A DNA stretch of 64,000 nt from an uncultured virus (IMG/VR IMGVR_UViG_3300028797_000120) (lineage: Duplodnaviria > Heunggongvirae > Uroviricota > Caudoviricetes). The notes under the pieces are model-generated. The model made no database searches. It was not told the origin of the DNA and saw only the letters and a list, made by a program, of their open reading frames with translations. Positions within the stretch are counted from its first letter, which is position 1. Every line of letters begins with the position of its first letter. Location: positions 1 to 64,000 of IMG/VR virus record IMGVR_UViG_3300028797_000120, one strand, 5' to 3'. This document shows positions 10,383-60,285 of this stretch, piece after piece. Made by a program: the position numbers and the translations under genes.

Positions 10383-10801
10383 ATCTCAACAACCTCTTCC
10401 GTCGGGATCTGCGCCGTGAAGCTGGCGCGGAGATCATCAACGGCGCCCTCGATCCGTCCAATGACGATCTCCTTCCACTCGTTCCCGACGGCCCTCGCCT
10501 CTCCTACGGAAGAGTAGTCCCTAGAGTCGAAGCTACGCATGTACGGGAAGCCATGCAGGACCCTGACATACTCGTCGCCGAAAGTGACCGTCTTCTCCGG
10601 ATCCACGGAGGCCGACCTTGCCGACGCGCCCTGTGACTTAATCGTGGTGTCCGAGTACGTGTAGGTGACGTCTCCACCGACGTTGATCTCCGGCTCGCCG
10701 TACTGGACCATCAGCTCAAGGTCTCTCTCGCTCCAGTCCTCTGTGTTGATCAGAACCCTGAAGACCGAATCGTCCATTGAAAGAAAAACGCGAATCTTCA
10801 C
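10379..10801 (-). CDS. Hypothetical protein
   Basis: 140-aa ORF, GGAGG RBS, GTG start, tightly packed between neighbours. Confidence 0.65.
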   Translation of the reverse strand: MKIRVFLSMDDSVFRVLINTEDWSERDLELMVQYGEPEINVGGDVTYTYSDTTIKSQGASARSASVDPEKTVTFGDEYVRVLHGFPYMRSFDSRDYSSVGEARAVGNEWKEIVIGRIEGAVDDLRASFTAQIPTEEVVEI

Positions 10802-10809
10802 GGAACCTC

Positions 10810-12282: not shown

Positions 12283-12311
12283 GGGACAAAAGTCTCCTTA
12301 GTCATGTCATG

Positions 12312-12322
12312 ATTATACCGAA
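12312..12322 (-). promoter_or_regulatory. -10 element TTCGGTATAAT
   Basis: Intergenic, upstream of the RBS and ATG at 12282. Confidence 0.6.
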
Positions 12323-12337
12323 TAAAACGTGTAGAGT

Positions 12338-13579
12338 CTAACCGCCAATCTCGAGCCGGGACAGGTAATCGTCCAGCGCTTTCATTTTCTCTTTTCTTAT
12401 GCCATCTGCCTTCGGAAAATCCTTGTGGATTGACTTAACCATCTCAGACGCCATTTCGCGGCTCCACGGCTTTCCAAGGATCTCGTCGTACATCCTGTTC
12501 TTCGCATACGTGTCCCATATCACCTTGTCTTCATCGTTAAGCACGCCTTTCATTCTCTTGAGTAACTCCATACCCTCGTATTCCTTGGGCCTGATTTCCT
12601 CGCCTTCCATTATTTTCCCAAGAACCCTGTCTATCTTGTACCTTAACTCTGCCCTTTTTCTGTCGACCCTGTTTCCCTGAGCCCCGATTTCCGCGGCTGC
12701 GGTCTGGAGAGGGGCAACCATATACAACGGGAACTTAGCCGCTTCGGTCACAGCGGACCGGACACCTTTCCTTATACCATTCTCCAAGCCTTCGGATCTC
12801 GCCGACTTCCCTCCTTCTGACAGTCCAATTCCGGCAACGAAAGCTGGCAACGCGTACTTCCCTCCGAGGAAGAAGCTCGGGAACGCGTATCCGTTAAGAG
12901 CGGATCCCGCTATCTCTCCCGAGTTTCCTCCCTTGAGGTACGTTCCTATACCCTCCTTCGCGCCCATGGAAACGCCTATAGGTGTCTTGAGCTTACTGAG
13001 GGCGCCGAACGCCTTACCAAATCCTGACGCCACAGCGCTGCCTCCGGGAATCTTTGATGCGACACTTCTCATGGCGCCAGACACACCCCTCGCCATGGGA
13101 ACAATGCCGAGCCTTTTGAGGAGGACGGCCGCTGAGTTTGCCCCGACCATACCTGCTGTCGCCTCAGGGAGATAGGATCCGGCCGCCATTACCTTCTCAA
13201 GCGGGGTCCCCTTCTCGAATGCGTATTCCCTTCCAGCATCCAAGGCCGACTGAAGGCTAGGGTTTCCGAGCGCCCCGTACCATCCCCTGTATGCCATGTC
13301 AGGGTTTGCGCCGTTGACAGACCCGGAACCTCCGTTCCATTTGCCCTTTCCGGATGTCATGACGGACTTCTGTTCTCCGCCAGGAGCGACATTTTTCCAC
13401 GCCCTTATCTGCGGTACCGGTCTTCCTGAACTATCAAGCATGTGTCCGGAAGGCGATCTCGCGTCCCTGTTGTAGCCATGGTATCCCTCAAGCCACTCCG
13501 CCGGCCTCATCTGCGCTGTCTTCAACATGTCTACCCACGACGTCTTTCCTTCCATCGCCATACTGAACCCTCCTGACAT
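12338..13579 (-). CDS. Hypothetical virion protein with Gly-rich hydrophobic core
   Basis: 413-aa ORF; N-terminal WVDMLKTAQ leader. Confidence 0.65.
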   Translation of the reverse strand: MSGGFSMAMEGKTSWVDMLKTAQMRPAEWLEGYHGYNRDARSPSGHMLDSSGRPVPQIRAWKNVAPGGEQKSVMTSGKGKWNGGSGSVNGANPDMAYRGWYGALGNPSLQSALDAGREYAFEKGTPLEKVMAAGSYLPEATAGMVGANSAAVLLKRLGIVPMARGVSGAMRSVASKIPGGSAVASGFGKAFGALSKLKTPIGVSMGAKEGIGTYLKGGNSGEIAGSALNGYAFPSFFLGGKYALPAFVAGIGLSEGGKSARSEGLENGIRKGVRSAVTEAAKFPLYMVAPLQTAAAEIGAQGNRVDRKRAELRYKIDRVLGKIMEGEEIRPKEYEGMELLKRMKGVLNDEDKVIWDTYAKNRMYDEILGKPWSREMASEMVKSIHKDFPKADGIRKEKMKALDDYLSRLEIGG

Positions 13580-13596
13580 TTATGTTCATCAATGAA

Positions 13597-15243
13597 TCAG
13601 TTCTTTCTCCTTGCCCTGTCAGCCTGTCCTCCTGCGTCTTTTGCAGCTTGGCTAATCATCCCGCCGGAAAGATCATCAAGCCGAGACACAATGTCTGGAT
13701 GTTTCTCAATAAACGGGACGAAGTCTCTCCACCCCTTTTCAATCGACGGGAAAAGTCCGATTGTCTTACTGTTGAACCCTATGTCCCCAAGAGCTGTTTT
13801 AGGCATAAAAACGTATGGCCCGACGTTGTCAAAAAACCTTAGAAGCTCGTCGTAATGTCTCTTCATGGACTCTTCTGTATGGTATGCGCCGGTTCTCCTT
13901 ATGTCTGCGACAACCTTCTTGAGAGCATTAGACCCCTCCAGAGTGGGCGCTGACGCCGAGTAGTCCCAGAAAGGCCTCTTGATCCCGTACCCTTTCATGT
14001 CTGACACGTCTCCGAAACCACCGTTTATGTACGCCGACAGGACATTCCTTGAGGCAGGATACCTTGCGGATGTCCACTTTATCGCATCCATGACAGCGCG
14101 GTCGAGACCGTTTGTCTCTACAGCATCTTTCTGTTCGGCAGACCATCCTTTTCGTTTCGCGTACAAACCCATGACTCCCGGCATGGCGTATGCGAGATTT
14201 CCAATGTAAGCCGATTCTCCTTCCGGCCGCCGATATCCGCTGTCTGGCAACATCCCGGCGGCAAGATATGTCAGTGGGGCAACCCTTACGTCCTCCTTAA
14301 TGCCGTAGACCCCGGGGTTTTCCCCATTAGACGGAACGACTTGAGGCTCTATGGCCGAGACTGCACGCTCGATTGGTCCGACCCTAGGCTTATAAATAAA
14401 AAGCTCCTCGTCATCAGGGTCCGCGAACGCATTCTCCCAAAGGTACACGTTTTTTGGCCTAGGGATATAACCTGTTCCTACTCCTTTTTCCTGGTTCTTC
14501 CGTACGAGCTCCCTAAATGATTCATTGAACGCACGATAATCATTTTTCGTTTTAGCCGTTGCTGCCCTATCGAACAGCGCGACCTCGGGGATTGCGGCCC
14601 TTGCGAGACGAGGATGAAGCGCATCAGGAGTTAAGGTTTCCGCAATCCACTTTCCGAAATCAGCTTTTTTGAGCATCCTCCTTTTCTTCTTCTTCTCCCT
14701 GAGAGCCCTTACCTTTTCCGCTATAACAAACGAGAGCGCTATGGCGCCAGCGACAGATCCTGCTATCTGCGCACCATTACGGACAAGATCCATCCATCGC
14801 GGAACCTGATTTTCTCCTGGAACTTTTGATAATGTCCTATTCCTCCGTCTCCTTCCTCTTCGACTTTTAGATGATCTGGATTTTTCACGTAAAGATTTTT
14901 CGATTTCCGATCCAGAACCGGGAGAAGGGTCAGAAGTGGGAGAAGGGTCAGAACTGGATGATGTCCCAGAAGGGGCTAGAGTGGCAGAAGAGTCTTCTGT
15001 CCCTACGTAAGTGGCCCACCTACCCATTTCTTTAATATCCTTATCCGAGTATACGTCCTGTTTTCGCGAATTGAACGATCTTTCAGCAAAAGATCTCACT
15101 ATTGGAGCGCCCCATTCGTCCCAATCATTTATCCTTTTTCTATCATAAGGCGTACTTCCTGCTATTAACACTTTTAGAGGATCGGGAAGTCGGCTGAAAT
15201 CGATTCGTCCTTCTCTCAATGCATTTTCAAGCGTTTTATCCAT
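13597..15243 (-). CDS. Hypothetical modular virion protein (Ser/Pro linker, basic patch, TM segment, KKA, C-terminal domain)
   Basis: 548-aa ORF, lower GC than flanks, SDPSP repeats, IAGSVAGAIALSFVIA hydrophobic helix. Confidence 0.65.
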   Translation of the reverse strand: MDKTLENALREGRIDFSRLPDPLKVLIAGSTPYDRKRINDWDEWGAPIVRSFAERSFNSRKQDVYSDKDIKEMGRWATYVGTEDSSATLAPSGTSSSSDPSPTSDPSPGSGSEIEKSLREKSRSSKSRRGRRRRNRTLSKVPGENQVPRWMDLVRNGAQIAGSVAGAIALSFVIAEKVRALREKKKKRRMLKKADFGKWIAETLTPDALHPRLARAAIPEVALFDRAATAKTKNDYRAFNESFRELVRKNQEKGVGTGYIPRPKNVYLWENAFADPDDEELFIYKPRVGPIERAVSAIEPQVVPSNGENPGVYGIKEDVRVAPLTYLAAGMLPDSGYRRPEGESAYIGNLAYAMPGVMGLYAKRKGWSAEQKDAVETNGLDRAVMDAIKWTSARYPASRNVLSAYINGGFGDVSDMKGYGIKRPFWDYSASAPTLEGSNALKKVVADIRRTGAYHTEESMKRHYDELLRFFDNVGPYVFMPKTALGDIGFNSKTIGLFPSIEKGWRDFVPFIEKHPDIVSRLDDLSGGMISQAAKDAGGQADRARRKN

Positions 15244-15260
15244 ACAAACCCACCTTCACT

Positions 15261-15590
15261 TCATTTTCGATCTATCGGGTATAGAACCGTGTCGGCAACC
15301 GCCTCCAGGCACGTGTCCGCAGCCGGTATAACGGAGACAGGCACCGACAATACATTATACCATGAAAACCTGAATACGCCGTCCGTCGCCATCATCTGCG
15401 GGAACGCCGTAACGGCCGTCCACGACGCCATCTCCCTCGTGGACTGGTAGGGCCTCTCTATCCTCGCGTCCGTCCACGGGCATCGGTTGTAGACGTTCAT
15501 GCAGCCGGACGATATCGCAAGGACGGCCGCCAAAAGCGCCGGTATTACGATGCGGGCAGGGATAAGAACACATTTTGTCGCATAGTCCAT
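15261..15590 (-). CDS. YceK/YidQ (DUF1375)-like lipoprotein
   Basis: Likely start MDYATK at 15590; hydrophobic signal ending ISSG-C; PYQST and DTCLEAVADTVLYPID resemble the YceK/YidQ pattern. Confidence 0.55.
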   Translation of the reverse strand: MDYATKCVLIPARIVIPALLAAVLAISSGCMNVYNRCPWTDARIERPYQSTREMASWTAVTAFPQMMATDGVFRFSWYNVLSVPVSVIPAADTCLEAVADTVLYPIDRK

Positions 15591-15604
15591 CAAGCTCGCC
15601 ACAA

Positions 15605-17707
15605 CTACACCCCCTTTATCTCGACAGGGTCGTTCGGGCCGATCTCGCCGCCCCTGTACGCCCTGATCGCGTCCGCCTTCGTCTCGAACACCCTGACCGG
15701 ACGCTTCGTCCTGCCCCTCGTAAGCGCCCACAGCCCGGATATCTGCTCCTTCTCGGGCTTGTACCTGACGGACTTCATGTCCGTAAGGCTGATGAGGTTC
15801 TCGGACGGGAGCATCTTCTCAAGGGACTGCTTTGCGGCCTTGTCGCTCGCCGGCACGTGGATGTTCACCGTGTTGCTGAGAACGACGCCGTCGTCTGAAA
15901 TGAACGTGTCGGGGCCTGGCACAGTAAGATCATACCCGATTTCCTCCTTGCCCGTCTTCTCGACGGACTTGATCTTGAGCCACGAAACCTTATATGACGC
16001 CGTCTCCGAAAGGGCCTTCATCTCGGCGCAATCCCTGAGTTCGGTGTCCGGGCTTCCGTACAGGGAAAACAGAGCCTTTATGTCCCCCAATTGTGACCAT
16101 GTAAGGAATCCCTTCTTCCTCGCGATGTATATGTCGTTAACCGATTTCCTCACATCGGAGGACCATGTCGGAGCGATCCTTGGCTTCGAGGCGTTCCACC
16201 CGTCCGAGAGGGCTTTCAGCTCGTCGCCGCTCACGCTGACCTTCCACGACCTCCTGCTTCCGCCCGCGTCCTTCTCGAGCATCCCGGAGAACCTCGACTC
16301 GATATCAGCAAGCACGGACAATCCATTATCCCTTGCGATTGTGTTCTTTTCGGCCATCTCGTTCCCAATGGCCTCGATATCGCGGACGGTATTCCTGGTT
16401 ATCGTTCCGATACACGCGCGATTCCTCACGTTCATGGCGACACTATTCACTTTTCTTCTCATCGCCATCTCGTCTTCTCCTGCGGATCCCTCGTCAGAAC
16501 CCGAAACCTCGAAAGTCGGTATCAGACGCGATATCTTTTCCGCTATTCCGCGAGGGAACGGGATCACATCGTTCCTGACGTAGGTTGAGCGCGTGTCAAC
16601 ATGGGAAGAGACGAAAATGTCCCTCTTTCTCGAATGGCAGCACATCGAGAGGAGATCCACGCGCTTCGCGTCAACTGTGCTTACTGAGCATATCCAAGAG
16701 TCGTTCCCTCCGGACGTGCGCTTGCTGTAGGAAATAGAAGACCCGACCCCGAGGAGCTGGCAGCACCTCCTGAACTCCCTGACGAGACGGATGGATGTGC
16801 TTGAGAACGATATCAGGAGCTGGGGCTTCTCTTTGCTGTGGCTCAGGCATACCGTCCCGTCCGTAGCGATAAGCCCGTTAACGAGACCAAGGATAAACTC
16901 CCTTCCAGCGAACTGGAACCAGACCGGAAGCCTCTTATTGGCTGACCCGGACGTTTTCTCGTCCCCATGCCCGTCGATGAGCTCCTTGATCCGTCCTCCG
17001 AGAATACTTCGTCTACCGGAGTTCAGCCTGTAAGCGGTCGTGTCCCCGTACCTACCGGACTCATCGCAGAACCTGTGCTCGATCTTCGATATCGTGAAGT
17101 CCGGGAAAACGGTCTTCAGGAAGTCTGATACGAAGGCGATGTTATATCCATCGTTGTCCGAGAGATATGGGTTTAGGCACCTGTCCGCCCATCCGTCTCC
17201 AGCCATGATTCCGACGAACTGTCCGAAACCGAACCCGATTTCAGTACACAGCCCTGACTTTTCCAGCTTGATCATCCCATCCTGAAAATCAAACGACAGG
17301 CCATCAACAGAGGAGGCTAGAGGACAGTCCGATACGGGGACGAGAACATTCTTGTCCATCGCATCGGACGGCGTGAACCTCCCCGGAGTCATTGAGTCTC
17401 CGTTGGCCGCGATGCCGTAGACTGCCCTCGGGTCGTTGTCCGTGATGATCTGCCTTCCGTCCTCAAGGTTTACGATCTCAACCTTCTTCCCCCGATGCAC
17501 GGACCAGAATTTGACATCCCTGAACTCGGGGAGACCGGTCTTCTCGTTGTATGAGGAAACCCTCACGCCTTCCGGGACATCGTAGAACTCAATGTCGTAT
17601 CCGGAATCCTTCCTCACTGACGAGAGCCCGCCATGGGGGAAGTCCTCGAGATCAACGACAACCGGGACACCTTCCATCTCAGCCACCACGCTCTTTTTGA
17701 TCTGCAT
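15605..17707 (-). CDS. C-terminal split-intein half with LAGLIDADG homing endonuclease, fused to an 88-aa RNA polymerase beta' C-extein
   Basis: FVGIMAGDGW and LVNGLIATDGTV endonuclease motifs; ends GYDLTVPGPDTFISDDGVVLSN|TVNIHVPAS..MLPSENL, where TVNIHVP aligns with the QMAVHVP that follows NADFDGD in RpoC; own AAGGAG RBS. Confidence 0.85.
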   Translation of the reverse strand: MQIKKSVVAEMEGVPVVVDLEDFPHGGLSSVRKDSGYDIEFYDVPEGVRVSSYNEKTGLPEFRDVKFWSVHRGKKVEIVNLEDGRQIITDNDPRAVYGIAANGDSMTPGRFTPSDAMDKNVLVPVSDCPLASSVDGLSFDFQDGMIKLEKSGLCTEIGFGFGQFVGIMAGDGWADRCLNPYLSDNDGYNIAFVSDFLKTVFPDFTISKIEHRFCDESGRYGDTTAYRLNSGRRSILGGRIKELIDGHGDEKTSGSANKRLPVWFQFAGREFILGLVNGLIATDGTVCLSHSKEKPQLLISFSSTSIRLVREFRRCCQLLGVGSSISYSKRTSGGNDSWICSVSTVDAKRVDLLSMCCHSRKRDIFVSSHVDTRSTYVRNDVIPFPRGIAEKISRLIPTFEVSGSDEGSAGEDEMAMRRKVNSVAMNVRNRACIGTITRNTVRDIEAIGNEMAEKNTIARDNGLSVLADIESRFSGMLEKDAGGSRRSWKVSVSGDELKALSDGWNASKPRIAPTWSSDVRKSVNDIYIARKKGFLTWSQLGDIKALFSLYGSPDTELRDCAEMKALSETASYKVSWLKIKSVEKTGKEEIGYDLTVPGPDTFISDDGVVLSNTVNIHVPASDKAAKQSLEKMLPSENLISLTDMKSVRYKPEKEQISGLWALTRGRTKRPVRVFETKADAIRAYRGGEIGPNDPVEIKGV

Positions 17708-17843
17708 CTCCTAAACTCCTTTTCTGATTGGATGCGTGATAATTTATCAAAAACTTAAGATTGATGCAACCAATATCTTTGCTACTCAAAAAGTCGTCAA
17801 GAGCCTTGCCAGTAAGGCTGACGCGAACGCTTCCAATCTGCTG
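15872..17843 (-). mobile_element. Intein 2 (apparently split: IntN 17682-17843, IntC 15872-17707) inserted directly after the catalytic NADFDGD
   Basis: Extein continuity NADFDGD|TVNIHVP; IntN begins QQIGSVRV; IntC ends SN before Thr+1. Confidence 0.85.
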
Positions 17844-20800
17844 GTCGCCGTCGAAGTCGGCGTTGAACGCGCCACAGACTAGAGGGCAGACGTTGATTGA
17901 GCGCCCTTTCACGATGTGAGGCTTGAAGGCCATGATGTTGAACTTGTGCCACGTCGGGGCCCTGTCCATGAGAACGGGCCGCTCCTCCATGACGTCGTCC
18001 AGTATGTGCCTCGCAGTGGCGTTTCTCTCGTCGATCATCTCCTTTGAGGCGACCGGGGAATAGCCGCGCTGGACGAGCTTGCGCTCTACGAAGGGTCTGA
18101 ATATTGTCCAGGCCATGTCCTCAGGGATCCCGATCTGGTCCATGCTGAGGTTGCCGTTCGGGGTGATGACGGAGCGTCCGACGAGGTCCTGGGTCTTCGA
18201 GACGGTCTTTGCCTGGAACATCCCCATCTTCGGGACTGTCCCTATCACCTGCCTGACGGCGCCCTTGAGGTTCTTCGCGCGGCCCTCCTGCGTTACGGGG
18301 TCACCGAGCCCGTAGGCGGCCTTCACGGCCCCGTAGACGGCAAGGCGCTCGTCCGCGAGGGCGGAGGCGGGGAGCTCCCTGGAGAGGTCCTCGTAGTTGC
18401 GCTTCATCTCGATGAGCTCCTTGTAGAGCTCGTTCATGTCGGGCACGAGGGCTACGTCGCCCATCTTGGAGACCGGGCGGAACATGGGCGGGAGAACGGG
18501 AACCCGCGAGATCATCCAGTCTGACGGAGAGATGCCCATCTTATTGGCGGACTTCAGGTATCCGAGGACCTTAACGGCGTTGTCCCGCTGCGCCCCGCGC
18601 CTGGTTAGAACCTCCGAGCGGGCCTTCTCGATGGCGCCGTCCACGTCGACCTTCGACAGGGCTTCCCTGAGGGCTTCCCCGCCCGTCTTGCCGTTCAGCT
18701 CCTCGCGTCCGGAGAGGACGGCCTCCATTTTCTTCGCCGTCAGTCCGAGGACGCGGCGTACGGGCTCCTCCATCATCGGGTTTGGGACGGGATCCGGGAG
18801 CGTGATCATGCTCCAGCGGTTTCCGCCCATCCCGCCCGTCTTTCCGAGGTCGAAGAGTCCTCCCCTTACGGGGTTCATGTCGGGGTCGACCATCTGCGAG
18901 GAGTCGATCACTCGGCCCTGGGCGAGCTCGTCGATGTCCTTGTCGGTCTGCGGCATGATGGATGTGACGTCTCCCTTCTCCACGACGTTCACGCCGCCGG
19001 CGCGGAGTGTGTTCAGGAACTTCTGGTAGATGAACGGCACTCCGGGCTCCTCGACGGGGAGCCCGAGGCGGTAGCGGCGCCAGTACTCGTCGTTGCGCGA
19101 GCCGCGCAGGGTTATGGAGTCCTTCAGGACGTCGGTCGCGCCGTGAGAGAGCAGGGCCGTCGCGTCAAAACCAGAATTTGAAACCAGGCAGTCAGAAGCA
19201 CAGTATTTGTGCGATTTCGCAACTGTAATGTCATACAGGCATATTTCGTCGTCTGGACCATGCTTGCCATCGCTGTACGGCCTCACAGATGTGACAAGCG
19301 CCGGGACGCTTCCAAGTGCGTAAGCAGTGTCTACACCTACGTACGTTTCATACAGCCTTGAAACTTCATTTATCAGCCACTTCTTAGAGGCTGGTATGTC
19401 TTCAGGCCTGATGTATTTGGCTACAATACGAGCCATACTGCGGCAGGCATCAGCAGACAACCCCAAGTAATAATACTCTTTTTTTACACCTTTGTAGGTT
19501 TTATGCGTCGTCCTGACAGTCACGCCAGCGCCAAGCCTCCCGCAAAGCCATTCGGCAAGCCTACAGTTCTCTTCATACGTAAAGTTCAATGTTGATATTG
19601 CCCCAAATGGGCTACCGGTCGGCACTCCATTCTTCGTGTGCTCAGATGCGCAGCCATCGTCAAGGAACCATGCGGCTATGCCGACATCATTTATGTTAGA
19701 CAGGTCGACGTTGACAAGGCTCTTACGACCGAGAGACCCGTCTGGCTGTCTATAGAACATGTTCTTGAGCCGTTCTGCTATGTCATGGCGGTGAATCTGA
19801 AAATACACAATATGCGAGTCGTCTCCATCAGCACGCCTAAATCCAGTCTTGCTCTTCCTCTGGGTGTTCTTTCTGCTTGACACCAGCGCTCCTAGGCAGT
19901 GTATCTTCCAGTTGACGTAGGCGTACTGATGGTGGCTGTGCTGCTCTTGGTAGAACGGTATACATCCGACGTCTAAGCTATTCGTCCTGTCAGACTTGCA
20001 TAGATTGTCGTTTATATTGCATATGCATCCATCGCCAAGCATAGAACCCATTAGAATGGACATCTGGTCCTCTGTAGGCACATACCCGTATGTCGTCAGC
20101 CAGTCACCAGGCCTTAAATCACCAGCAAGAACTTCACCTTTGTTGAAGGAGTACATGTGATGCTGACGTGTGACATGCATCGTCTTGCCTGTGTATACTA
20201 CTCGCTTACGGCTACAATTATCTGACCCTGGCAGATAGTTAATTGATATGGACAGAACCTCTGACATCTTCCCCTTGCGGCAGAACCAGTTCGTTATGAG
20301 AGAATAACCCCATGACCCGTTGTCGAAGCGGGTCCACACGTATTCGGGAATTTTCTTGTCTACGATATGACCTATGGATTCCTCTCCATGCAATACCCTG
20401 ATCGGCTGATCTGCGGTGAAACACATACGCTTAGCACCGTCATCGCCCCCCTTGGCCGGCTGCTCGTCCATCGTGTAGGCGCTGTCCACGCCGCGTGCCG
20501 AGAACTTCTTTTCGGCCAGGTGGTGGAACGCCTTGACGTACGCGTACCCGTCTCCGACGTTCTTGATGATCCTTCCCGTCTGCGGGTCGAACACGTCTGA
20601 CGACTCCTTGACGCCGTTCTCGTCCATCTGCCGTTTGACCCATGCGGTCCACCCCTCTTGCGGCGGCAGCTGAGGGATGCGGATCTGCTTCCCTGTCTTC
20701 TTGGCCACCTTGGCGAGGTTCATCAGGGCTATCTGGCCCGGGGCGACGCGGGAGAGGAAACCCATGGGGTTCATCAGCATGTCGTACGGCTCGTTCGTGG

Positions 20801-23800
20801 CCGCGTCGCGCGGCATCTTATCGTCCGGGATGACGTCCGAGACGACCCCCTTTAGAGAGAAATCGGGGCACAGCTTGTCGCCGGGCTTCACAGGAGGGTC
20901 GCTGTTGACGATCACCTTCGCGCCGTGCGGTCCCGACACGATGTCCGTGACGACTCCAGGCCAGTCGTGCTCCCACTTCTGTGATCTGTCCGTGATGGCG
21001 TTCCTCAGGACGCCGGAGAGCTTTCCGAGCTGTGCGTTCTCCGGTGACAGCATCTTGGGCCCGATGGCGAGGATCATGGGGTCGTCCCTGTGGAGCACGG
21101 TACCGACCTTTACGACGCCGTCGTCCCCGATCGTGTCGGCCTGCGCCTTCGTGTAGGCCGACGGGAACGCCGCGAGGAACTTCGACCTGGCGATCTGCAC
21201 GCCGTTCTTAGTGTCCTGCTCGAAGTTGTACGTGCGCGACGTGGCGAGCTTCTTCGCCGCGGATTCCGAGATCACGATGGCGTCCTCGAACGACGACGTG
21301 CCCTGCGGGGCGGGAAGCACGGCGACCTTCAGGTTCCGTCCCATGGTGACCGTTCCGGTCTTCGGGTCGGTGAAGTTGGAGTTGGCGAGGATTCCGCCCT
21401 CCTCCACCTCGTCTCCCTTTTTCACCTGGGCGGTGAACGAGAGGGAGGACAGGCGGTTGAACGGGAGGCCCTTGACGAGCGACGCGGTGTGCTCGCGGCC
21501 GTCCTTCCCGCGGAGGACGATCTCATTGTCGCTCACCTTCACTACGGTACCGGCGAACGGGGCCGTCAGGCATCCGACCCTCCGCCCGTAGTACTCGCCG
21601 TACGTCGTTTTCCCGTCGTCGGTCAGGCTCTCGACAAGAGGAACCTCTCCCTCTTTCTGGGGGAGGAACTGCTCCCAGAACTTCGACATGTAGAACTGGC
21701 GGGCGCCCATGACGGCCGTTGGCATCGGGTTCATGTTGATGCCGGCAGACACGGTGTTGCCGAACCCAGGCACCATGAAGTCCACCTCGTCCCTGGGGAC
21801 CATCGTAGGCACGCCCTTGCGCATGACGTAGAGGTTGGGTGACTTCGGGTCCTGGCCCGGGAAGGCCACGGTGTGGGACGACGCGTCGTTCAGGGAGACG
21901 TAGCGGGTTTTACCGGTCCGCATGTCGATCATCTTGTTGTAGATCCGGTTGTCGCTCCCCTTCATCGTCCCGAGCGCCGCCCTGACGTCGATCCCGATGC
22001 CGAACGACTCAGGACCGCTGATGAAGTCCACGTAGCCCAGGTAGTCACCCTGGACGTTGCGGGCCTCGTTGGTCACGAGGTCGGGCGAGGAGATGCCGCC
22101 CTCCCCAAGGCGGGTGATGCGGGACTGCTGGGTGAGGAGCGACATCGGGTTCGCCTCCTCTCCTGGCATCGCGAGTCCGGACCCCGAGAGAAAGGTGTCG
22201 AGATAGGGCCCGAGCGCGTTCCTGGCTATGCGGGCCAGCGAGCGGTCCCGCTTCGCCCTGAACAGGAGGGACTTCGTGAGGCGTCCAGAGTCGCGGTCGA
22301 TGCGCTCGCGCATCATGTCCTCCACCCCGTAGAACCGGCTGAAGCGGGGGTTGTCGCGCTCGTCCGGCTCCTCAGCGCCCCTGTTGATGTTCAGGAGCTT
22401 CTGCGCGGCCCTGAGCATGACCTTCCCGGTCACTCCAGAGGCGTTCTCAAGCCCGAGCGTCCGGACGACGACGTCTGGGTCGAGCCCGCTGGAGGCAAGC
22501 GACTCGGAGATGAACGAGGCCTTCTCGGACGGGGTCAGGCTCATGTCGGCCCGGCGGCCGGCGTAGCGCGCGTAGACCTTGTCGACGGCCCTAGGGTCGA
22601 ACTTGGCGATGTTCACGTTCGCAACGGCGTCTCCCCAGGACTTCCGCATGTCGTCATCCGACACGCCGAGGGCGCTCAAAATGGGGTAAAGGGGGACATG
22701 GCCCTGTCCGACGCTCATGTTCAGTGCGCCGGTCGACCTGTCCAGTCCGATCCGGAAGCCGAGCCCGTTCGCCACGTTGAACTGGGACTCGAGCTCGCCG
22801 TTCTGCTTGCGGCGCACGTAGACCCCGGGGGACAGGCGGGCCTGAGAGATGACGGTGTACTCGCTCCCGTTATTGATGATCGTTCCCCTGTCGGTGTAGT
22901 AAGGTACCCTGATGACGCCGTCCCTTCGCTCGTCCAGGACTTTCCCGGTGCGCTTGTCCGTCAGGCGCCACGTCCCGGCGACAGAGCATCCGAGGCGCCT
23001 GTTGTTCAGGATGGCCCTCTTCTGCTGCTCAAGCGTGTAGGAGGTAGGACCCTCGTATTTAACGTCCAGAAGCTCGAGGCGCACGTCGTCGTTCTCGATC
23101 GGGAAGCGGTTCTTGACGGCTTCAAGGACGTTGTCCATGATGGCCTGCCGAGTGGCCGGCGCGTCCGTGAACCCGCGTAGCCTCACGCCCGGAGGCACGC
23201 CCTCCATGGGATCGTCGGCGTCGTCCGCCTGGGAAGTCTTGACTATGCTCTTCTCTTTCTTATATCCGGAAGCAGTCTCCTCGTCGTCAAGATTCTTCTG
23301 AGCCTCTTCCCGAGTGTTGAACACCTTCCCGGGATGGTCTCCGAACCCGCCGTACATGGCGAGTCCGGTGGTCTTAAACCTTCCCCCTTCTTCGATGTCT
23401 GGGGAATCTAGCCAGCAGCAGTAGTAATCCTTTCCGTTGGACCGCTTCCCGCCGTAATAGTATCCTACGATCTTACGTACCTTTCCACTCATCCTCGCGT
23501 GAGGGAAGGTTACCCATTTCCCGATAGGAAATTTTTCCTTCATTTCCGCGGGGATATCATCCTCCTCATGACGATCTTGCGATGTCTTGACGATGCTCTT
23601 TTTTTCGGCTGGATCTGATTTGGCGGCAGGGGCCTTGTCCGCGGGAGCCTGTTTTTCGGTCTTGGCTGGATTCGAGGCCTCCTGGTTCAGGACCCAGACG
23701 TCACCGTTCCTCCTGAGCCTCTTCATGAAGTCGCTGTGGAGCTTCGCCGACTTCGCGACGGCCGCCTCGCTGTAGCTCCTGTTCCCGGGTATCGTGTGGG

Positions 23801-24950
23801 CAGGAGTAAACACCTTTCTCAGAAGCCAGTCGGCGTACTTGTCAGCGGTGAACTCCGCCCCGGCGGCCATGTGGGCCTTGTAACCGGACCTGGACGGCAT
23901 GTAGACCTTCGTGAAATAGTCGATCTGGCTGTCGGACGAGTCTTGAAGCCCGTTCTTCGCGAGCCACGCCTTATAAGCATCAAGAGAGGGGCCCGTGTAC
24001 TGGAAGAGCCCGCGTCCACCTCCCCCTCCCATCTGCTTAGTGGCGTAGTCGAATCTACCTCCTGTCTCCCTGTCTATGTTCGCCAGCACAGCGGCCTCTA
24101 GAATCGGGTTGTTCAGATTCTCGTGGAGCCTCTTTGCAACGTTATTGAACCTTTCGTAGACATCCACCGGACCGGCGGCTTGCTTTGGCGGGGGGATAAC
24201 AATTTTCTGCCCGATAGAGAGAACGTTCGGGTTCTTGAGGCTGTTCGCGGCGATCAGCTCTTTCAAAGGAACCTTTAGCTTTTGGGCGATACCGTAAAGC
24301 GAGTCGCCCTTCTGGACGACGTATTCGGACGGGCGATTGACAGGATTGACCTGGGCCGCCTTCTCGTTGACCTTTATCGGATCGACGATCGGAGCGACGG
24401 ACCTGTACTCGTGGAACGGCTTGGTCTTGCGGTCAGACGAGTCGATCCACTTCCTGAACTCGGCCTTGGAGACAGGCGTGATCCATCCTAGGCCATTCCA
24501 CCCCTTCTGGTAGCAGGCTAGGTAGGTCTTCTTGGCGTCCTCGACGCTGTCGAAACCGTACATGACCTTGTGCTCGTCGAACTTTCCGGTCTTGGGGTCC
24601 ACCTGGTCGATGACGAAGACGCACCCCTTCTCCGGATGGTCGGACAGGTAGATGTCCACCGGGTCGCCGTCCGTGTCTGTCGTGCCCCTGATGTCTCCGT
24701 AGTCGCATGCGAGAGCATTGCTCCACCTCGTCCCGTCCGGAGAGACCCCGGATCGGATTGACCCCTTCGGGTTCTCTATGGACACGCGGAACCCGTCGAT
24801 GGACAGGTGGACCTTTCTGTAGTTCCCCGCCCTTCTCTGCCCTTCTGTGGGGTTCTCGGCTGCGTCAGGGGCTCCTGCGTTCACGGCGCGCTGCGCCGGC
24901 GAGGAGGCCTTTTTCGAGAAGATCGAGTCGATGGTTTCAAGTAGCGTCAT
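17679..24950 (-). CDS. Polyprotein: inorganic pyrophosphatase-like domain + LysM + phage tail-lysozyme-like domain + fused RNA polymerase beta/beta'(N-half), with inteins
   Basis: PPase DYGDIRGTTDTDGDPVD/FDEHKVM; LysM YVVQKGDSLYGIA..NPNVLSIGQKIVIP; lysozyme LANIDRETGG..GRGLFQYTG; beta motifs GTIINNGSEYTVISQ, FEDAIVISE, GDKL..KGVV, NPMGFLSR; beta' motifs GGLFD, PVLPPMFRP, GRSVITP, RAPTWHK, NADFDGD. Confidence 0.92.
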   Translation of the reverse strand: MTLLETIDSIFSKKASSPAQRAVNAGAPDAAENPTEGQRRAGNYRKVHLSIDGFRVSIENPKGSIRSGVSPDGTRWSNALACDYGDIRGTTDTDGDPVDIYLSDHPEKGCVFVIDQVDPKTGKFDEHKVMYGFDSVEDAKKTYLACYQKGWNGLGWITPVSKAEFRKWIDSSDRKTKPFHEYRSVAPIVDPIKVNEKAAQVNPVNRPSEYVVQKGDSLYGIAQKLKVPLKELIAANSLKNPNVLSIGQKIVIPPPKQAAGPVDVYERFNNVAKRLHENLNNPILEAAVLANIDRETGGRFDYATKQMGGGGGRGLFQYTGPSLDAYKAWLAKNGLQDSSDSQIDYFTKVYMPSRSGYKAHMAAGAEFTADKYADWLLRKVFTPAHTIPGNRSYSEAAVAKSAKLHSDFMKRLRRNGDVWVLNQEASNPAKTEKQAPADKAPAAKSDPAEKKSIVKTSQDRHEEDDIPAEMKEKFPIGKWVTFPHARMSGKVRKIVGYYYGGKRSNGKDYYCCWLDSPDIEEGGRFKTTGLAMYGGFGDHPGKVFNTREEAQKNLDDEETASGYKKEKSIVKTSQADDADDPMEGVPPGVRLRGFTDAPATRQAIMDNVLEAVKNRFPIENDDVRLELLDVKYEGPTSYTLEQQKRAILNNRRLGCSVAGTWRLTDKRTGKVLDERRDGVIRVPYYTDRGTIINNGSEYTVISQARLSPGVYVRRKQNGELESQFNVANGLGFRIGLDRSTGALNMSVGQGHVPLYPILSALGVSDDDMRKSWGDAVANVNIAKFDPRAVDKVYARYAGRRADMSLTPSEKASFISESLASSGLDPDVVVRTLGLENASGVTGKVMLRAAQKLLNINRGAEEPDERDNPRFSRFYGVEDMMRERIDRDSGRLTKSLLFRAKRDRSLARIARNALGPYLDTFLSGSGLAMPGEEANPMSLLTQQSRITRLGEGGISSPDLVTNEARNVQGDYLGYVDFISGPESFGIGIDVRAALGTMKGSDNRIYNKMIDMRTGKTRYVSLNDASSHTVAFPGQDPKSPNLYVMRKGVPTMVPRDEVDFMVPGFGNTVSAGINMNPMPTAVMGARQFYMSKFWEQFLPQKEGEVPLVESLTDDGKTTYGEYYGRRVGCLTAPFAGTVVKVSDNEIVLRGKDGREHTASLVKGLPFNRLSSLSFTAQVKKGDEVEEGGILANSNFTDPKTGTVTMGRNLKVAVLPAPQGTSSFEDAIVISESAAKKLATSRTYNFEQDTKNGVQIARSKFLAAFPSAYTKAQADTIGDDGVVKVGTVLHRDDPMILAIGPKMLSPENAQLGKLSGVLRNAITDRSQKWEHDWPGVVTDIVSGPHGAKVIVNSDPPVKPGDKLCPDFSLKGVVSDVIPDDKMPRDAATNEPYDMLMNPMGFLSRVAPGQIALMNLAKVAKKTGKQIRIPQLPPQEGWTAWVKRQMDENGVKESSDVFDPQTGRIIKNVGDGYAYVKAFHHLAEKKFSARGVDSAYTMDEQPAKGGDDGAKRMCFTADQPIRVLHGEESIGHIVDKKIPEYVWTRFDNGSWGYSLITNWFCRKGKMSEVLSISINYLPGSDNCSRKRVVYTGKTMHVTRQHHMYSFNKGEVLAGDLRPGDWLTTYGYVPTEDQMSILMGSMLGDGCICNINDNLCKSDRTNSLDVGCIPFYQEQHSHHQYAYVNWKIHCLGALVSSRKNTQRKSKTGFRRADGDDSHIVYFQIHRHDIAERLKNMFYRQPDGSLGRKSLVNVDLSNINDVGIAAWFLDDGCASEHTKNGVPTGSPFGAISTLNFTYEENCRLAEWLCGRLGAGVTVRTTHKTYKGVKKEYYYLGLSADACRSMARIVAKYIRPEDIPASKKWLINEVSRLYETYVGVDTAYALGSVPALVTSVRPYSDGKHGPDDEICLYDITVAKSHKYCASDCLVSNSGFDATALLSHGATDVLKDSITLRGSRNDEYWRRYRLGLPVEEPGVPFIYQKFLNTLRAGGVNVVEKGDVTSIMPQTDKDIDELAQGRVIDSSQMVDPDMNPVRGGLFDLGKTGGMGGNRWSMITLPDPVPNPMMEEPVRRVLGLTAKKMEAVLSGREELNGKTGGEALREALSKVDVDGAIEKARSEVLTRRGAQRDNAVKVLGYLKSANKMGISPSDWMISRVPVLPPMFRPVSKMGDVALVPDMNELYKELIEMKRNYEDLSRELPASALADERLAVYGAVKAAYGLGDPVTQEGRAKNLKGAVRQVIGTVPKMGMFQAKTVSKTQDLVGRSVITPNGNLSMDQIGIPEDMAWTIFRPFVERKLVQRGYSPVASKEMIDERNATARHILDDVMEERPVLMDRAPTWHKFNIMAFKPHIVKGRSINVCPLVCGAFNADFDGDQQIGSVRVSLTGKALDDFLSSKDIGCINLKFLINYHASNQKRSLGDADQKERGG
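17741..17769 (-). promoter_or_regulatory. Sigma70-like promoter embedded in the IntN coding sequence
   Basis: TTGCAT-17 nt-TAAATT with TG extension, in an AT-rich island ~34 nt upstream of the ATG at 17707. Confidence 0.55.
19176..20423 (-). mobile_element. Intein 1 (contiguous, 416 aa, LAGLIDADG endonuclease) in the RNAP beta C-terminal region
   Basis: GAKRM|CFTADQP...VTRQHHM...LMGSMLGDGC...AWFLDDGC...YDITVAKSHKY..LVSN|SGFDATALLSHGA; exteins align with RpoB GQRFGEMEVWALEAYGA; lower GC than flanks. Confidence 0.92.
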
Positions 24951-25065
24951 TTCTTCACCTGTGAGTTCTCAGCGCCGGTCACCGCGTTTCCTCTCGAATA
25001 GACCGGAACGGGCCATTTTTCGTTGAGCCGGCCATCTTTGATCGGGTAGTGTATTAAGCGGTCTT

Positions 25066-26781
25066 CTAGGTTTTGGCATTCGAGACGGTGGAAGGCTGCG
25101 GAGCCATACCTGAAAGAGCCTTGTTCACATAGTTTCTAGTGAACATCCTCCTCAATCCCAGACCGTTCATAAGCCAGCTCAGGAATCTAAACCACAGGCT
25201 CCCTCCCCTAGCCCACCCGTTATTTACGATCATTCTGTTCGTCCTGTCCTCCACCAATTGGTTCCACCCGGGGTGACTCCCATCGTTTAGGTAGCTCGTG
25301 AACAGGTCCCCTACCCTCTTGTCGGTGGTAACCCTTCTCTGAAGCTCATTCGGATCAAGTTTGGCGAACATGCCAAGCCTGTCCTTCGGAATCATCTCAA
25401 GCATTTTTTCCCTAGCGAGACGGGTATTCGGGTTTTCAGGGTCATACGCTTTCGCTATATCCAAAAGCTTATCCTTGTTCTTCTCATCGCTTATGATACC
25501 GTATATTTCGTTTACGGCGTTACCGTATCCTGTGTCATTAGCTTCATACGCATCCTTTGGGACGAATTCCTCCTTAATTTTGTCCACGGCCCTACTGAAT
25601 AAGTTCACCGAGTCTTCCGCCTTTTTCTCCATTACAAAGTCCATGAACATGGCCTGCTTGATGGACGCGGCTGCGAGTGCGGCCTCAGGCCGGATCCTCA
25701 TGTCCTTACCGTCAACTGTCCTGTATAGGACGAACCGGTCGTCCGGTATCGAGCTGGACCTGTCCTTCGCCTCCTCCTTCTCCCTCTTGCGCATCTCCAT
25801 GATCTTGTTCGTGACCATCCACATGGCGACGGCCGGGATAATGAACGACGATCCTATCACGGCTCCGGTAAGCGAGTTGATGTTCTCTCTGGGACCGTAT
25901 CCCTCCTCCTGGGCCGTTTTCTCGCCTCCGCCCTGCAGGATGTTGACGTAGCGATTCCTTGCCCGCTCGGCGTTCTTCATTGAATTCTGCGCCCTCATCT
26001 TGTTTACCCTGTCGACAATCATGGCGGACAGGTAGATGGCGCCGACCCCTCCAGCCGATATGGCAGTAGGGACGAAGGCCCCGGACTGGATGAACGCCTT
26101 CATCGTCTTGCCAGGATGGGCTATGGCCTTCCACGTCGAGTCAGCCCAATCAAGGTTCCAGCCGTCGTCCTTGGCCGTTTTCTCGTTTGATCCGGAATCT
26201 TGCCCGTTTCCTCCATCCCCGTTATCGCGCTTCTCTCGCTCCTCCTCGGCCTTCATAACGCCGATCGGGGATGTCGGGGACACGAACCTTCCGGCGTCGT
26301 CCCTGGGGAGATCCGTCTTTTTGTCACCGCCTTTCTCCGGAACGTCATCCTTGCCGCCCTCAGGCTTCGCCTTATCGGGCTCTGGAGAGCCTGACCCGTC
26401 CACGGCAGCCTTCGTGCCGAAAAAGTCGAACCGCCTCTCGCTCTTTCTCGATATCTCCCTCTTGAGACTGTCGATATCCTTTTTATCCATCCCCGAGATG
26501 TCCGTCTTCGCCACAGCGTCCGTTTCCCCTCCGAACATCCTCCTGTGCTCCTCCGGCGTCGGCAGGCCCTTTGTGAAGTTGGACTTATCGATGTCGACTA
26601 TGATCGCACTCTTGGACTTGTGAGGGTCAATGGCCTTCCGGCGCTTATCGTCCGACTTGACCCCGCTCGCGTACGTCCCGATCCCGGCCGACAGGACGCC
26701 GGCACCGAGAGCCCACCTCAGGTATTTCGCGAGTTCCTTACGCTGCCTTTCATCAAGTTGCAACTTAGCGCTCTTAATCAT
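25066..26781 (-). CDS. Hypothetical multi-pass membrane-like virion protein
   Basis: Likely start MIKSAK at 26781 (AAGGAG RBS); several hydrophobic segments preceded by KSA/KTA/KTA/KKA motifs. Confidence 0.7.
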   Translation of the reverse strand: MIKSAKLQLDERQRKELAKYLRWALGAGVLSAGIGTYASGVKSDDKRRKAIDPHKSKSAIIVDIDKSNFTKGLPTPEEHRRMFGGETDAVAKTDISGMDKKDIDSLKREISRKSERRFDFFGTKAAVDGSGSPEPDKAKPEGGKDDVPEKGGDKKTDLPRDDAGRFVSPTSPIGVMKAEEEREKRDNGDGGNGQDSGSNEKTAKDDGWNLDWADSTWKAIAHPGKTMKAFIQSGAFVPTAISAGGVGAIYLSAMIVDRVNKMRAQNSMKNAERARNRYVNILQGGGEKTAQEEGYGPRENINSLTGAVIGSSFIIPAVAMWMVTNKIMEMRKREKEEAKDRSSSIPDDRFVLYRTVDGKDMRIRPEAALAAASIKQAMFMDFVMEKKAEDSVNLFSRAVDKIKEEFVPKDAYEANDTGYGNAVNEIYGIISDEKNKDKLLDIAKAYDPENPNTRLAREKMLEMIPKDRLGMFAKLDPNELQRRVTTDKRVGDLFTSYLNDGSHPGWNQLVEDRTNRMIVNNGWARGGSLWFRFLSWLMNGLGLRRMFTRNYVNKALSGMAPQPSTVSNAKT

Positions 26782-27217
26782 CTCCATCTCCTTCATCGCA
26801 TTCATCGCCTTCATCGAATTCGCAGCCTTCGTCTGTCTCATCACCTTTTGACGGACTATCTCCTTCCCCGGCGAACTCCACATACTCGACATACTTCATC
26901 CAGTATGACGTCCCGTCTGGACGCCTAACAAGGTCCTTGCTCGTCTCGACAACGGCCTCAAGCCTTCCCACCTTCACGAGCAGACGCTTCCAAAGACTCT
27001 CGTACGCCTTCCTCTGATCAATGTCGGAAAGGTCGAATATCTCGACCTTCACCTTCTTGACCCTGAACTCGCTCCCGAATCCAGGAACCGGCGTCCCCCC
27101 ATCACCGCCTTCCGAAGCCCTGAATAGGGAATCAGGATTTATCGGGGCTCCAGTACAAAATGTCGGCACCCCCCTGCGGGCTGGACTTGACGAAACGAAC
27201 GAGAATCCAGACATCAC
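26774..27217 (-). CDS. Hypothetical protein with acidic C-terminal tail
   Basis: 147-aa ORF overlapping both neighbours. Confidence 0.65.
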   Translation of the reverse strand: MMSGFSFVSSSPARRGVPTFCTGAPINPDSLFRASEGGDGGTPVPGFGSEFRVKKVKVEIFDLSDIDQRKAYESLWKRLLVKVGRLEAVVETSKDLVRRPDGTSYWMKYVEYVEFAGEGDSPSKGDETDEGCEFDEGDECDEGDGDD

Positions 27218-28215: not shown

Positions 28216-28962
28216 TTACCCAATCTGAACGGTCAGCGCATCCGGGGCCCACAGGCTCCTGTTCCTCTCGAGCCATGAGTCCGCCATATTTTTTTTCCTT
28301 CTGGAGAACGACGCGCTTCCCAGATGCTCGATATACGGGTCGAGCGACTTTATGCGATGGCCCTTTAGCCCGCGCTCCTCGCAGTCCCTGTAGAACCACG
28401 CCCCTGTGTCGTAGTGCTTGTTCGGGAGATTATTTGAAAGCATCTCCATGAACTCGCCGTTGTAGTACCTTACTCCGGAGTCCCGGACTAACGGAACGTT
28501 TATGAATGACAGGAACGGCAGAACCCTGTACGGGCAAAGTCCCATCTCATCGTTAAATGCGGAGAAGACCTGGCCCGACCATACGGCATCGTCAACGACA
28601 AAATCACGGATATCCCCCTTCATCAGCACATCGCTGTCAACCAGCATGAACGGCTCGTCGGTGTTGTCGATAAACCATTGGACAGACCTGCAATGCTTGG
28701 CCGACCCGTAGTTCGAGATGCGTGCATCCCTTGCGACCTTGTCCGGAAAACCCCGGAGCATCTCATCGAAGTCTATGACCTTACCGGACGTATTGTCGAC
28801 AACATCTATCCCGACACTTACGGTTTCCGGAGCTACGAAAGGGTCTCTGTCGCTGCTGTCGAATATGACGACACGGTCTATGCCCTTAGCGTTTTTATCG
28901 ATCGACCTTACGGCGGCCGATGTCACGTTGGGGGTATTATAGTGCGCGATGAAAGCTGTCAT
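28216..28962 (-). CDS. GT-A fold (GT2-like) glycosyltransferase
   Basis: FIAHYNTP, VVIFDSSD, MLVDSDV (DxD), DTG..., IEHLGSAS motifs; ATGA overlap with upstream paralogue. Confidence 0.75.
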   Translation of the reverse strand: MTAFIAHYNTPNVTSAAVRSIDKNAKGIDRVVIFDSSDRDPFVAPETVSVGIDVVDNTSGKVIDFDEMLRGFPDKVARDARISNYGSAKHCRSVQWFIDNTDEPFMLVDSDVLMKGDIRDFVVDDAVWSGQVFSAFNDEMGLCPYRVLPFLSFINVPLVRDSGVRYYNGEFMEMLSNNLPNKHYDTGAWFYRDCEERGLKGHRIKSLDPYIEHLGSASFSRRKKNMADSWLERNRSLWAPDALTVQIG

Positions 28963-30913: not shown

Positions 30914-31060
30914 GAGAGGAGAACCTTTCTTATCGCCGCAAGGCTTGGACTCATAGGTGGAGAAGGAGGTTGCCAAAACAGGGGCGTGGAACCTTGCACG
31001 GGGGACATCGGATGCAAATAATCGTTCATCATTCTTTTCGCCTGCCCAAAGCCAATGGTG

Positions 31061-46977: not shown

Positions 46978-47029
46978 CCTTTGTGTTTTTCATGATGGCC
47001 CTACTCGCTCGAGCTTTCGGGCCATCGTC

Positions 47030-55604: not shown

Positions 55605-55614
55605 TGTCTTCTCC

Positions 55615-60263: not shown

Positions 60264-60285
60264 CCCTAATTCCACCCTTTTAACC

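Follow-up and report, generated by a model that had tools for sequence, protein, structure and literature searches.

The present analysis concerns a gene for a phage RNA polymerase (RNAP) in positions 1 to 64,000 of the IMG/VR record IMGVR_UViG_3300028797_000120, from an uncultured gut virus of the Caudoviricetes; this whole stretch of 64,000 nucleotides is referred to as the window. The window is phage DNA, is free of N letters, and is matched by an identical complete phage record of 181 kb (G001). A minus-strand open reading frame (ORF) of 2423 amino acids joins a short leader and several cargo domains to a polymerase of the cellular two-barrel type. Based on comparison with its relatives, this polymerase is probably packaged in the virion behind a leader with optional cargo, and the chain is probably cut by the prohead protease. 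The ORF is composed as follows.

17679-24950, minus strand: whole ORF, comprising the leader, cargo cassettes, RNAP beta, intein 1, the C-terminal end of beta fused to the N-terminal part of beta' (beta'-N), and the N-fragment of intein 2
24906-24950, minus strand: leader of 15 residues ending K-K-A (K13), a candidate packaging propeptide by comparison with homologue leaders
24396-24863, minus strand: pyrophosphatase domain (InPase), type I pyrophosphatase fold, polyvalent-protein subtype (PF18823, E 2e-50)
24354-24362, minus strand: K-A-A site (K197) behind InPase, the motif being conserved behind RNAP-fused InPases
24189-24329, minus strand: LysM domain, opening the LysM-lysozyme cassette (PF01476)
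23676-24167, minus strand: lysozyme-like domain completing this cassette, its RETGG containing a conserved Glu (PF18013, E 1e-7)
23580-23654, minus strand: low-complexity linker with K-Q-A (K433) and K-T-S (K455)
23271-23567, minus strand: small beta-barrel cassette, Tudor/SH3-like (predicted local distance difference test, pLDDT, 83-96)
23232-23240, minus strand: K-T-S site (K571), 10 residues ahead of the polymerase, at the position of the last site in homologues
20424-23210, minus strand: RNAP beta, main part (PF00562; 30% identity to gp206 of the cultured Salmonella phage Arash)
19176-20423, minus strand: intein 1, class 1 junctions, LAGLIDADG
17844-19175, minus strand: C-terminal end of beta continuing into beta'-N, with the catalytic NADFDGD as its last residues (PF00623)

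A first-pass annotation had read the order pyrophosphatase-like domain, LysM, lysozyme, small extra domain and two-barrel RNAP from the DNA, and this order was confirmed by a Pfam domain scan, with InPase at residues 37-169 (E 2e-50), LysM at 210-253 (4e-15), Phage_lysozyme2 at 286-352 (1e-7), Rpb2_6 at 1183-1501 (3e-30) and Rpb1_2 at 2306-2371 (1e-21); NADFDGD occupies 2363-2369. All six border motifs quoted in that annotation are present at their borders. The InPase matched the gp19 portal domain of PDB 9b41 (E 8e-29), and its acidic motifs DGDPVD, which aligns to bacterial pyrophosphatases, and DEHK are intact; we take the residues of both motifs to bind metal. The LysM domain matched the structure 4xcm (Z 8.2, root-mean-square deviation 0.8 over 46 residues), RETGG was present in 8/8 carriers of the lysozyme cassette, and the best matches of the Tudor-like barrel, to chromo, UvrD-CTD and CarD domains, were weak (Z of approximately 5). 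A Foldseek search of the PDB yielded nothing with an E value of 0.001 or lower, and a comparison of the small beta-barrel domain with the Atlas gave none at 0.9; the single-sequence fold of the cargo had a pLDDT of 35, and the lysozyme part of the alignment-based model remained below 50. The description of the ORF as a two-barrel RNAP was correct in that beta and beta'-N are present, but the enzyme is not complete, as beta'-C is separate and two inteins had been overlooked. A functional polymerase requires two splicing events, one of them in trans, and the separate beta'-C gene.

An artefact of assembly or sequencing might in principle account for the fused chain, or for the interruption of intein 2, as the record is from an uncultured virus and no single contig listed covers the whole stretch. 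However, contigs from other studies span the joints and show the split without gaps: one joins InPase, LysM and lysozyme (24043-24589), and a contig bridging the ORF end retains the intein 2 split junction. A further contig, possibly from the source run itself, matches 20695-24659 without differences. Moreover, LysM-lysozyme is joined to the polymerase in 8 separate protein clusters and InPase in 92, and relatives hold 29 N-fragments and 57 C-halves of intein 2. The artefact is largely refuted, retaining a practically negligible probability, and the earlier assumption that the ORF is no misassembled chimera stands.

The remaining polymerase genes are located elsewhere in the genome. A separate beta'-C gene of 1019 amino acids, carrying an ordinary Cys1 LAGLIDADG intein, was observed at G001 172628-175687 (L014:7628-10687), approximately 110 kb from the beta gene, and a sigma-70-like gene, like Arash gp10, lies in the tail block at G001 23041-23772 (L012:4041-4772). 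No alpha subunit was found in 2/2 near-complete records (control 14/14), and NADFDGD is the only RNAP-type catalytic motif in G001. This layout is shared with Arash, in which beta is fused to a beta'-N ending approximately 88 residues past the catalytic motif (gp206), with a separate beta'-C (gp216) and a sigma-like gene (gp10). The capsid and protease of Arash are homologous, its head proteins show an excess of K-x-A, and its polymerase was detected in virions; gp206 differs in having neither cargo nor intein. Arash gp218, gp220, gp222 and gp226 match the genome, and gp204, gp216 and gp217 are without match in record G000. Related database records are the Vibrio phages D69, D148 and D181. In mReC phages (Weinheimer and Aylward 2020), beta and beta' are likewise recognisable by cellular profiles (PMC7481178), but the marker genes differ: the capsid ORF studied here lacks a match to PF07068 at E values up to 1, and the terminase matches are PF05876 and PF17289 instead of PF03237. 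The accessible text of the mReC paper does not mention a fusion, split, virion role or intein (PMC7481178).

The cargo was compared among relatives from a beta search, which gave 817 proteins among 7999 scored candidates. The best 120 were analysed, and the homologue counts use subsets of 95 (architectures, with cargo counts from the first 95), 114 (leaders), 116 (recognised catalytic motif) and 99 (tree). InPase stands at the start in 92/95 close relatives, and the stretch between InPase and polymerase ranges from 22 to 705 residues in 32 architectures. The Tudor-like barrel or its paralogue was observed in 53/95 relatives, HExxH domains in 10/95, a weak GNAT match in one, and LysM-lysozyme, as one cassette scattered over the tree, in 8/95. 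In a FastTree phylogeny of the 99 beta sequences, InPase needs 3 changes, compared with 6.9 in label shuffles (0/200 as low), and the 8 carriers of the lysozyme cassette require 7 changes, compared with 7.8 (37/200 as low); the peptidase-like cassettes need 11 changes for 11 carriers, and the Tudor cassette 23 compared with 33 shuffled. These change counts indicate that InPase is inherited, whereas the other cassettes are gained and lost. Thus, the proposal of a fixed kit for wall binding, wall cutting, transcription and pyrophosphate (PPi) removal is not supported, because LysM-lysozyme is optional and only InPase is fixed.

The leader is retained beyond the cargo carriers: 19 InPase-less sisters without cargo have leaders of 25-60 amino acids ending K-x-A-Q. 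Among 148 distant family representatives, 71 begin at most 10 residues from the core, 70 have leaders of 11-70 residues, mostly proline-rich, 5 have longer ones, and 2 are unplaced. Since these representatives rarely carry cargo, the slot appears to be confined to a single clade. In genome collections, the InPases nearest to this one belong to giant proteins (median approximately 4700 residues), mostly in Bacteroidales records, and 0 are fused to RNAP. The chain combines several unrelated enzymatic domains that vary between relatives, and its phage-type InPase and lysozyme stand in a late/virion gene context, consistent with polyvalent proteins; the internal HExxH metallopeptidase, which is common but not universal in such proteins, is missing from the 2423-residue protein.

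The joints between modules share the pattern K-x-[AS]-[QEASGM], observed at 184/209 joints compared with 37 matches in 23,624 residues within modules; a narrow pattern gave 8 matches in 81,880 polymerase-core residues. The placement of the motif is also regular. The first K-x-A/S is at position 13 in 83/114 close homologues, the last is 6-13 residues ahead of the core in 101/114, and the motif follows within 42 residues of InPase in 86/92 RNAP-fused copies compared with 9/78 copies in Bacteroidales-genome proteins. Of the 25 joints without the motif, 7 are the LysM-lysozyme joint. The motif PKQAAG at this joint, one of the borders in the first-pass annotation, is missing in 7/8 carriers and present only in the 2423-residue protein.

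The same motif is frequent in the head module of the phage. The polymerase gene is situated between the terminase gene and a block of prohead protease, scaffold-like, decoration and capsid genes, of which the following bear on the argument.

31623-33371, minus strand: large terminase subunit, lying upstream in the block of genes on the same strand (phrog_675, E 1e-60; PF05876)
7796-9271, minus strand: putative prohead protease, its domain bracketed by K-Q-A (31) and K-V-A (216) (phrog_18299, E 9e-5, weak)
6164-7669, minus strand: scaffold-like protein with 15 K-x-A sites in 501 amino acids, the function being suggested by position and composition
4076-5095, minus strand: major capsid protein, K-x-A sites at residues 3, 20 and 28 (26% to Arash gp226, E 3e-20)

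Measured against within-protein shuffles, the motif count was 60 compared with 16.2 +/- 3.9 in 13 head-block proteins of G001 (capsid excluded), a 3.7-fold excess, and 28 compared with 7.3 +/- 2.6 in Arash gp218-226, a 3.8-fold excess. In tail blocks, the motif reached 1.5 times the shuffles in G001 and 1.2 times in Arash, and in non-structural genes 0.8 and 1.0 times. The protease aligns to Arash gp222 (37% over 243 amino acids, E 5e-36; Arash sites at 30 and 218), and in both proteases the catalytic domain is preceded by K-Q-A and followed by K-V-A at positions that align; a comparison of the protease sequence with the PDB gave nothing significant. The capsid proteins of both phages have motif sites within the first 30 residues. 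Among the unannotated genes flanking the polymerase (9312-15243 and 25066-26892), several have K-x-A sites, including 11 in 10810-12282 and 3 in 25066-26892, and their products may be core proteins or ejected proteins. Beyond the main head block, G002 46744-47880 and Arash gp242 are also K-x-A-dense (10 and 6 sites) and are candidate head substrates.

Proteomic data are available for the Arash homologue. In the accessible part of the Arash study, gp206 tops the virion proteins in detection, with 3516 spectra; gp216 has 1210 and a sigma factor 467 (PMC10585845). Together with the head-module location, this result supports the earlier suggestion of virion packaging, and the motif statistics, head-protein enrichment and protease brackets support that of cutting at the joints by the prohead protease; both suggestions are strengthened by comparison and remain predictions. 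A polymerase made during infection and acting outside the virion, with cargo that works in the cell and a motif that reflects recombination points or linker composition, was considered very unlikely. The Arash proteome may contain carry-over, the sole RNAP gene in the complete record may serve several stages, and the motif is mostly missing in distant relatives, all of which would suit such an enzyme. However, composition-keeping shuffles give the 3.7-3.8-fold excess only in head proteins, the gene sits between terminase and protease, and a wall-binding lysozyme would be of little use in the cytoplasm early.

Herein, we propose the following course of events for the packaged and cut polymerase. 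A late head-module gene would make the precursor, whose N-terminal leader would direct its loading into the prohead. In the Arash-like family, one clade might have turned the gap between leader and polymerase into a cargo slot, in which InPase was fixed once and in which other cassettes (LysM-lysozyme, Tudor-like barrels, HExxH peptidases, a GNAT-like domain and others) would be gained and lost as whole units, each with Lys-x-Ala/Ser at its borders. The prohead protease would cut behind Ala/Ser (Lys at P3, Ala/Ser at P1), freeing the cargo enzymes and the polymerase in fixed proportion, and the freed proteins would be ejected with the DNA. The polymerase, consisting of beta and beta'-N, the separate beta'-C and the sigma-like protein, would then transcribe the first phage genes. 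For this purpose, intein 1 would be lost in cis, and joining in trans at the third catalytic Asp would add an 88-residue tail from the next ORF. If the chain is cut, the InPase is untethered, and therefore the fusion would serve co-packaging rather than PPi channelling. The InPase may clear PPi or attack a signalling nucleotide, and the lysozyme cassette, although optional, could help ejected proteins to cross the wall.

Several points weigh against this proposal. The joint pattern was fixed after inspection of the data, and the joints are not independent samples, as homologous linkers recur. In the 2423-residue protein itself, the count is not above chance (3 compared with 1.7 +/- 1.3 in 200 shuffles of residues 1-580), so that the motif signal rests on the relatives; two sites of the protein read K-T-S, and one site is followed by Pro. 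A wider pattern in the polymerase core gave 105 matches compared with 54 shuffled, 78 of them from one conserved site. Arash gp206 has neither cargo nor motif excess, and in the distant family cargo is rare and K-x-A occurs in 8/70 short leaders, so that the motif is not a family-wide packaging signal. The protease identification is one weak profile match. The Arash proteome includes many non-structural enzymes, for which the authors allow carry-over, and the accessible text of the paper does not mention cleavage (PMC10585845).

The most direct competitor is a chain that is packaged but remains whole, in which K-x-A would be a docking or assembly signal of head proteins and a tethered InPase would clear PPi. 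In its favour, and against cutting, the N4 virion RNAP is packaged unprocessed (PMC5512222) and P23-45 gp96 is full-sized in virions (PMC10770324), according to the accessible texts; approximately 80% of SPN3US head proteins stay uncut (PMC10052503, in the part available), and InPase is fixed whereas the other cassettes vary. Nevertheless, a docking signal would be unneeded at every joint (184/209) or on both sides of the protease domain, and LysM and lysozyme, which must act together, form the joint that lacks the motif (7/8). We consider an uncut chain rather unlikely. A chain that is cut either by a metallopeptidase of its own or, once inside the cell, by a protease of the host, as proposed for polyvalent proteins, appears highly improbable: self-processing by a metallopeptidase (MPTase) has been proposed (Iyer 2017, PMC5512222, accessible text) and HExxH is found in the cargo of 10/95 relatives, but the cargo of the 2423-residue protein and of 85/95 relatives is without HExxH, and the motif is common to the capsid, scaffold and protease of the phage. 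Metallopeptidase self-processing cannot apply to the 2423-residue chain because it has no HExxH.

The predicted processing of the packaged chain can be compared with known systems, for which the published accounts are cited from their accessible portions. The virion RNAPs of N4-like phages are fused to MPTase, lysozyme, ART or PBECR, and PPi clearing by InPase has already been proposed for polyvalent proteins (Iyer 2017, PMC5512222). Like polyvalent proteins in general, the present chain unites disparate enzymes and is probably delivered by the virion, and InPase and lysozyme are phage-type polyvalent domains (PMC5512222). The N4-like proteins differ in having a single-subunit polymerase, with processing ascribed to an internal metallopeptidase (PMC5512222), whereas here a cellular-type two-barrel enzyme appears to anchor cassettes punctuated by a head-protease-like motif. 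The first-pass statement that no RNAP of this architecture was described therefore holds for the two-barrel type, for which our searches gave no precedent, but not for fusions of virion RNAPs to lysozyme and effectors (PMC5512222). Thermus phage P23-45 gp96 is also a two-barrel virion RNAP fused to other virion domains, but it is fused to the tape measure, full-size and highly divergent (PMC10770324). In SPN3US, gp245 cuts A-x-E (P3-x-P1) in propeptides and in itself; a three-residue motif in propeptides, scaffold and protease is shared with the phage studied here, and the ejected head proteins of SPN3US include its virion RNAP (PMC10052503). The motifs of SPN3US, phiKZ and T4 end in Glu, whereas the motif enriched here, in a head block that includes the putative protease gene with its weak profile match, is Lys-x-Ala/Ser. 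The proteases T4 gp21 and phiKZ gp175 follow similar three-residue rules with motifs ending in Glu, and herpesvirus assemblin cuts after Ala.

In the open-access literature, neither an InPase fused to a two-barrel RNAP, nor a head protease with a K-x-A motif, nor inteins such as those described below were found to be described, and the accessible parts of PMC7824862 and PMC11766414 added no precedent. What appears to be new is a virion polyvalent variant on a two-barrel RNAP, a predicted cleavage code and an atypical intein. The code would offer a sequence-readable rule for head loading in a phage family of considerable size, with 1259 representatives found at an E value of 1e-30 or lower. It would also extend polyvalent proteins to a cellular-type RNA polymerase and to a processing route other than self-cutting, and a slot tolerating 32 architectures might serve as a natural model for the gain and loss of injected counter-defence enzymes.

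Both inteins interrupt the polymerase. Intein 1 extends from C1510 to N1925, with S1926 at +1 and a LAGLIDADG_2 match (E 1e-15), and has the features of class 1; a contig of another run omits it exactly (19169 to 20428). Intein 2 is split, since the ORF 17679-24950 ends inside it, directly behind NADFDGD, and it continues in the ORF 15605-17707, as follows.

17682-17843, minus strand: intein 2 N-fragment, 54 amino acids, first residue Gln, without Cys/Ser nucleophile, 41% GC
17772-17800, minus strand: weak sigma-70-like promoter match (9/12) inside the N-fragment, upstream of the ATG at 17707
15872-17707, minus strand: intein 2 C-half, 612 amino acids, HINT and LAGLIDADG, ending Ser-Asn (PF14528, PF14890; DnaB-intein E 2e-7)
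15605-15871, minus strand: C-extein, consisting of Thr+1 followed by 87 residues that correspond to E. coli beta' 466-551

Among the 116 homologues with a recognised catalytic motif, 71 run directly into the tail, 16 have a contiguous insert, and 29 stop after a fragment of 35-54 residues, the first residue of which is variable (Q, L, K, M, E, G and others). Stand-alone second halves account for 57/74 matches to the ORF 15605-17707, including that of the genome itself. A frameshift error as the cause of the split was rejected on the basis of the halves in relatives and the gap-free contigs. Re-initiation is favoured over programmed frameshifting for the C-half because the start codon and ribosome-binding site are conserved. 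The sequence AGGAG precedes the ATG at 17707, and 1 promoter match was found compared with 0.2 +/- 0.5 in shuffles; the ribosome-binding site and this weak match within the N-fragment suggest that the split arose because the endonuclease half was expressed separately. The alternative of an RNA intron at the intein 2 position was also rejected, as there was no relevant Rfam match in 14000-26000 and the junction RNA folds like shuffles (z 0.04).

An alignment of 86 C-half sequences showed a block B of T-D-x-D-P-R without His and a Ser-Asn end before Thr. The class 2 features Ser G6, Thr B7 and Asp F4 were present in 82, 83 and 86 of the 86 sequences, and there was no Cys column at 85% conservation. 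Under the class definitions used (PMC4031507, accessible text), intein 2 lacks the Cys/Ser1 and His B10 of class 1, has Gln1, Thr+1 and Asp B10 in place of the Ala1, Cys+1 and His B10 of class 2, and has Asp in 86/86 in place of the Cys F4 of class 3. By its residues, intein 2 thus appears to fit none of the three described classes, the nearest being class 2. According to the accessible texts, the lack of Cys/Ser at position 1 is shared with class 2 (KlbA) and class 3, the Ser preceding the terminal Asn, together with Thr B7 and Asp F4, with class 2 (PMC4031507), and the short N-fragment with the atypically split AceL-TerL (PMC4031507, PMC11766414). Intein 2 differs in its variable first residue, Thr+1 instead of Cys+1, Asp for His B10 and the lack of Cys F4, as well as in a split that leaves the endonuclease in the C-half and in its location on the catalytic Asp of the host enzyme. 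A complex prediction for the two halves scored 0.01, with an uncertain partner fold, and speaks neither for nor against splicing; in a profile comparison with the beta'-C intein only the endonuclease aligned; locus searches with the C-half returned only the identical record and intein-free relatives. The wide conservation of intein 2 on an essential catalytic motif argues that it splices. It would do so in trans, without a first-residue nucleophile and without the block-B His, perhaps by direct Thr attack or through an anhydride of the extein Asp.

The third catalytic residue was compared in 245 proteins and was Asp in 139/139 intein-free alleles. In 23 alleles, a sister intein type has Asn-Cys where the third catalytic Asp is expected, and an Asp-Thr end could be resolved in 18 of them; its block B is S-D-N-E-S, without His, and it was noticed in relatives such as P0044, P0054, P0058, P0223, P0254 and P0256. 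In this type, splicing itself would restore the catalytic Asp from the encoded Asn, and, speculatively, the extein Asn may attack the Asp-Thr bond, with hydrolysis leaving Asp. In a third type at this motif, the Asp is followed by an intein with Ser or Cys as first residue, which likewise has an Asp end (5 resolved). At least 7 intein insertion sites were observed in the polymerase among the 120 homologues, with three inteins in some proteins. A broader hypothesis, which we advance tentatively and regard as somewhat doubtful, is that the Lys-x-Ala protease code constitutes an open cargo slot, such that any flanked domain is packaged, freed and injected in fixed ratio, in combination with inteins outside classes 1-3, including trans-splicing and the sister-type restoration of Asp by splicing. 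An intein that is naturally split, free of cysteine, short in its N-terminal piece and devoid of a first-residue nucleophile would represent a new variant of splicing and might be of use in protein ligation, and the split would make active-site formation dependent on a second gene.

Several other genes were observed in the window and in related records. Between terminase and polymerase, 28216-30976 and 33398-33967 contain two glycosyltransferase-like paralogues (by eye; no Pfam match), as well as a methyltransferase/glycosyltransferase fusion and a methyltransferase, with possible roles in virion or host-surface glycosylation. A permuted papain-like amidase (PF05708) lies at 34008-34655, and a caspase-family protein (PF00656) with a lipoprotein-like N-terminus at 36364-37284. 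Near-identical ORFs of 116 and 123 amino acids stand in tandem at 55254-55986, and two neighbouring DUF7666 genes occupy 58394-60275, with a third similar start at G000 77179-78093. Finally, a 368-residue ORF at G000 118207-119313 lies beside tail-fibre-like genes, and its start resembles what we take to be the pattern of reverse transcriptases of diversity-generating retroelements.

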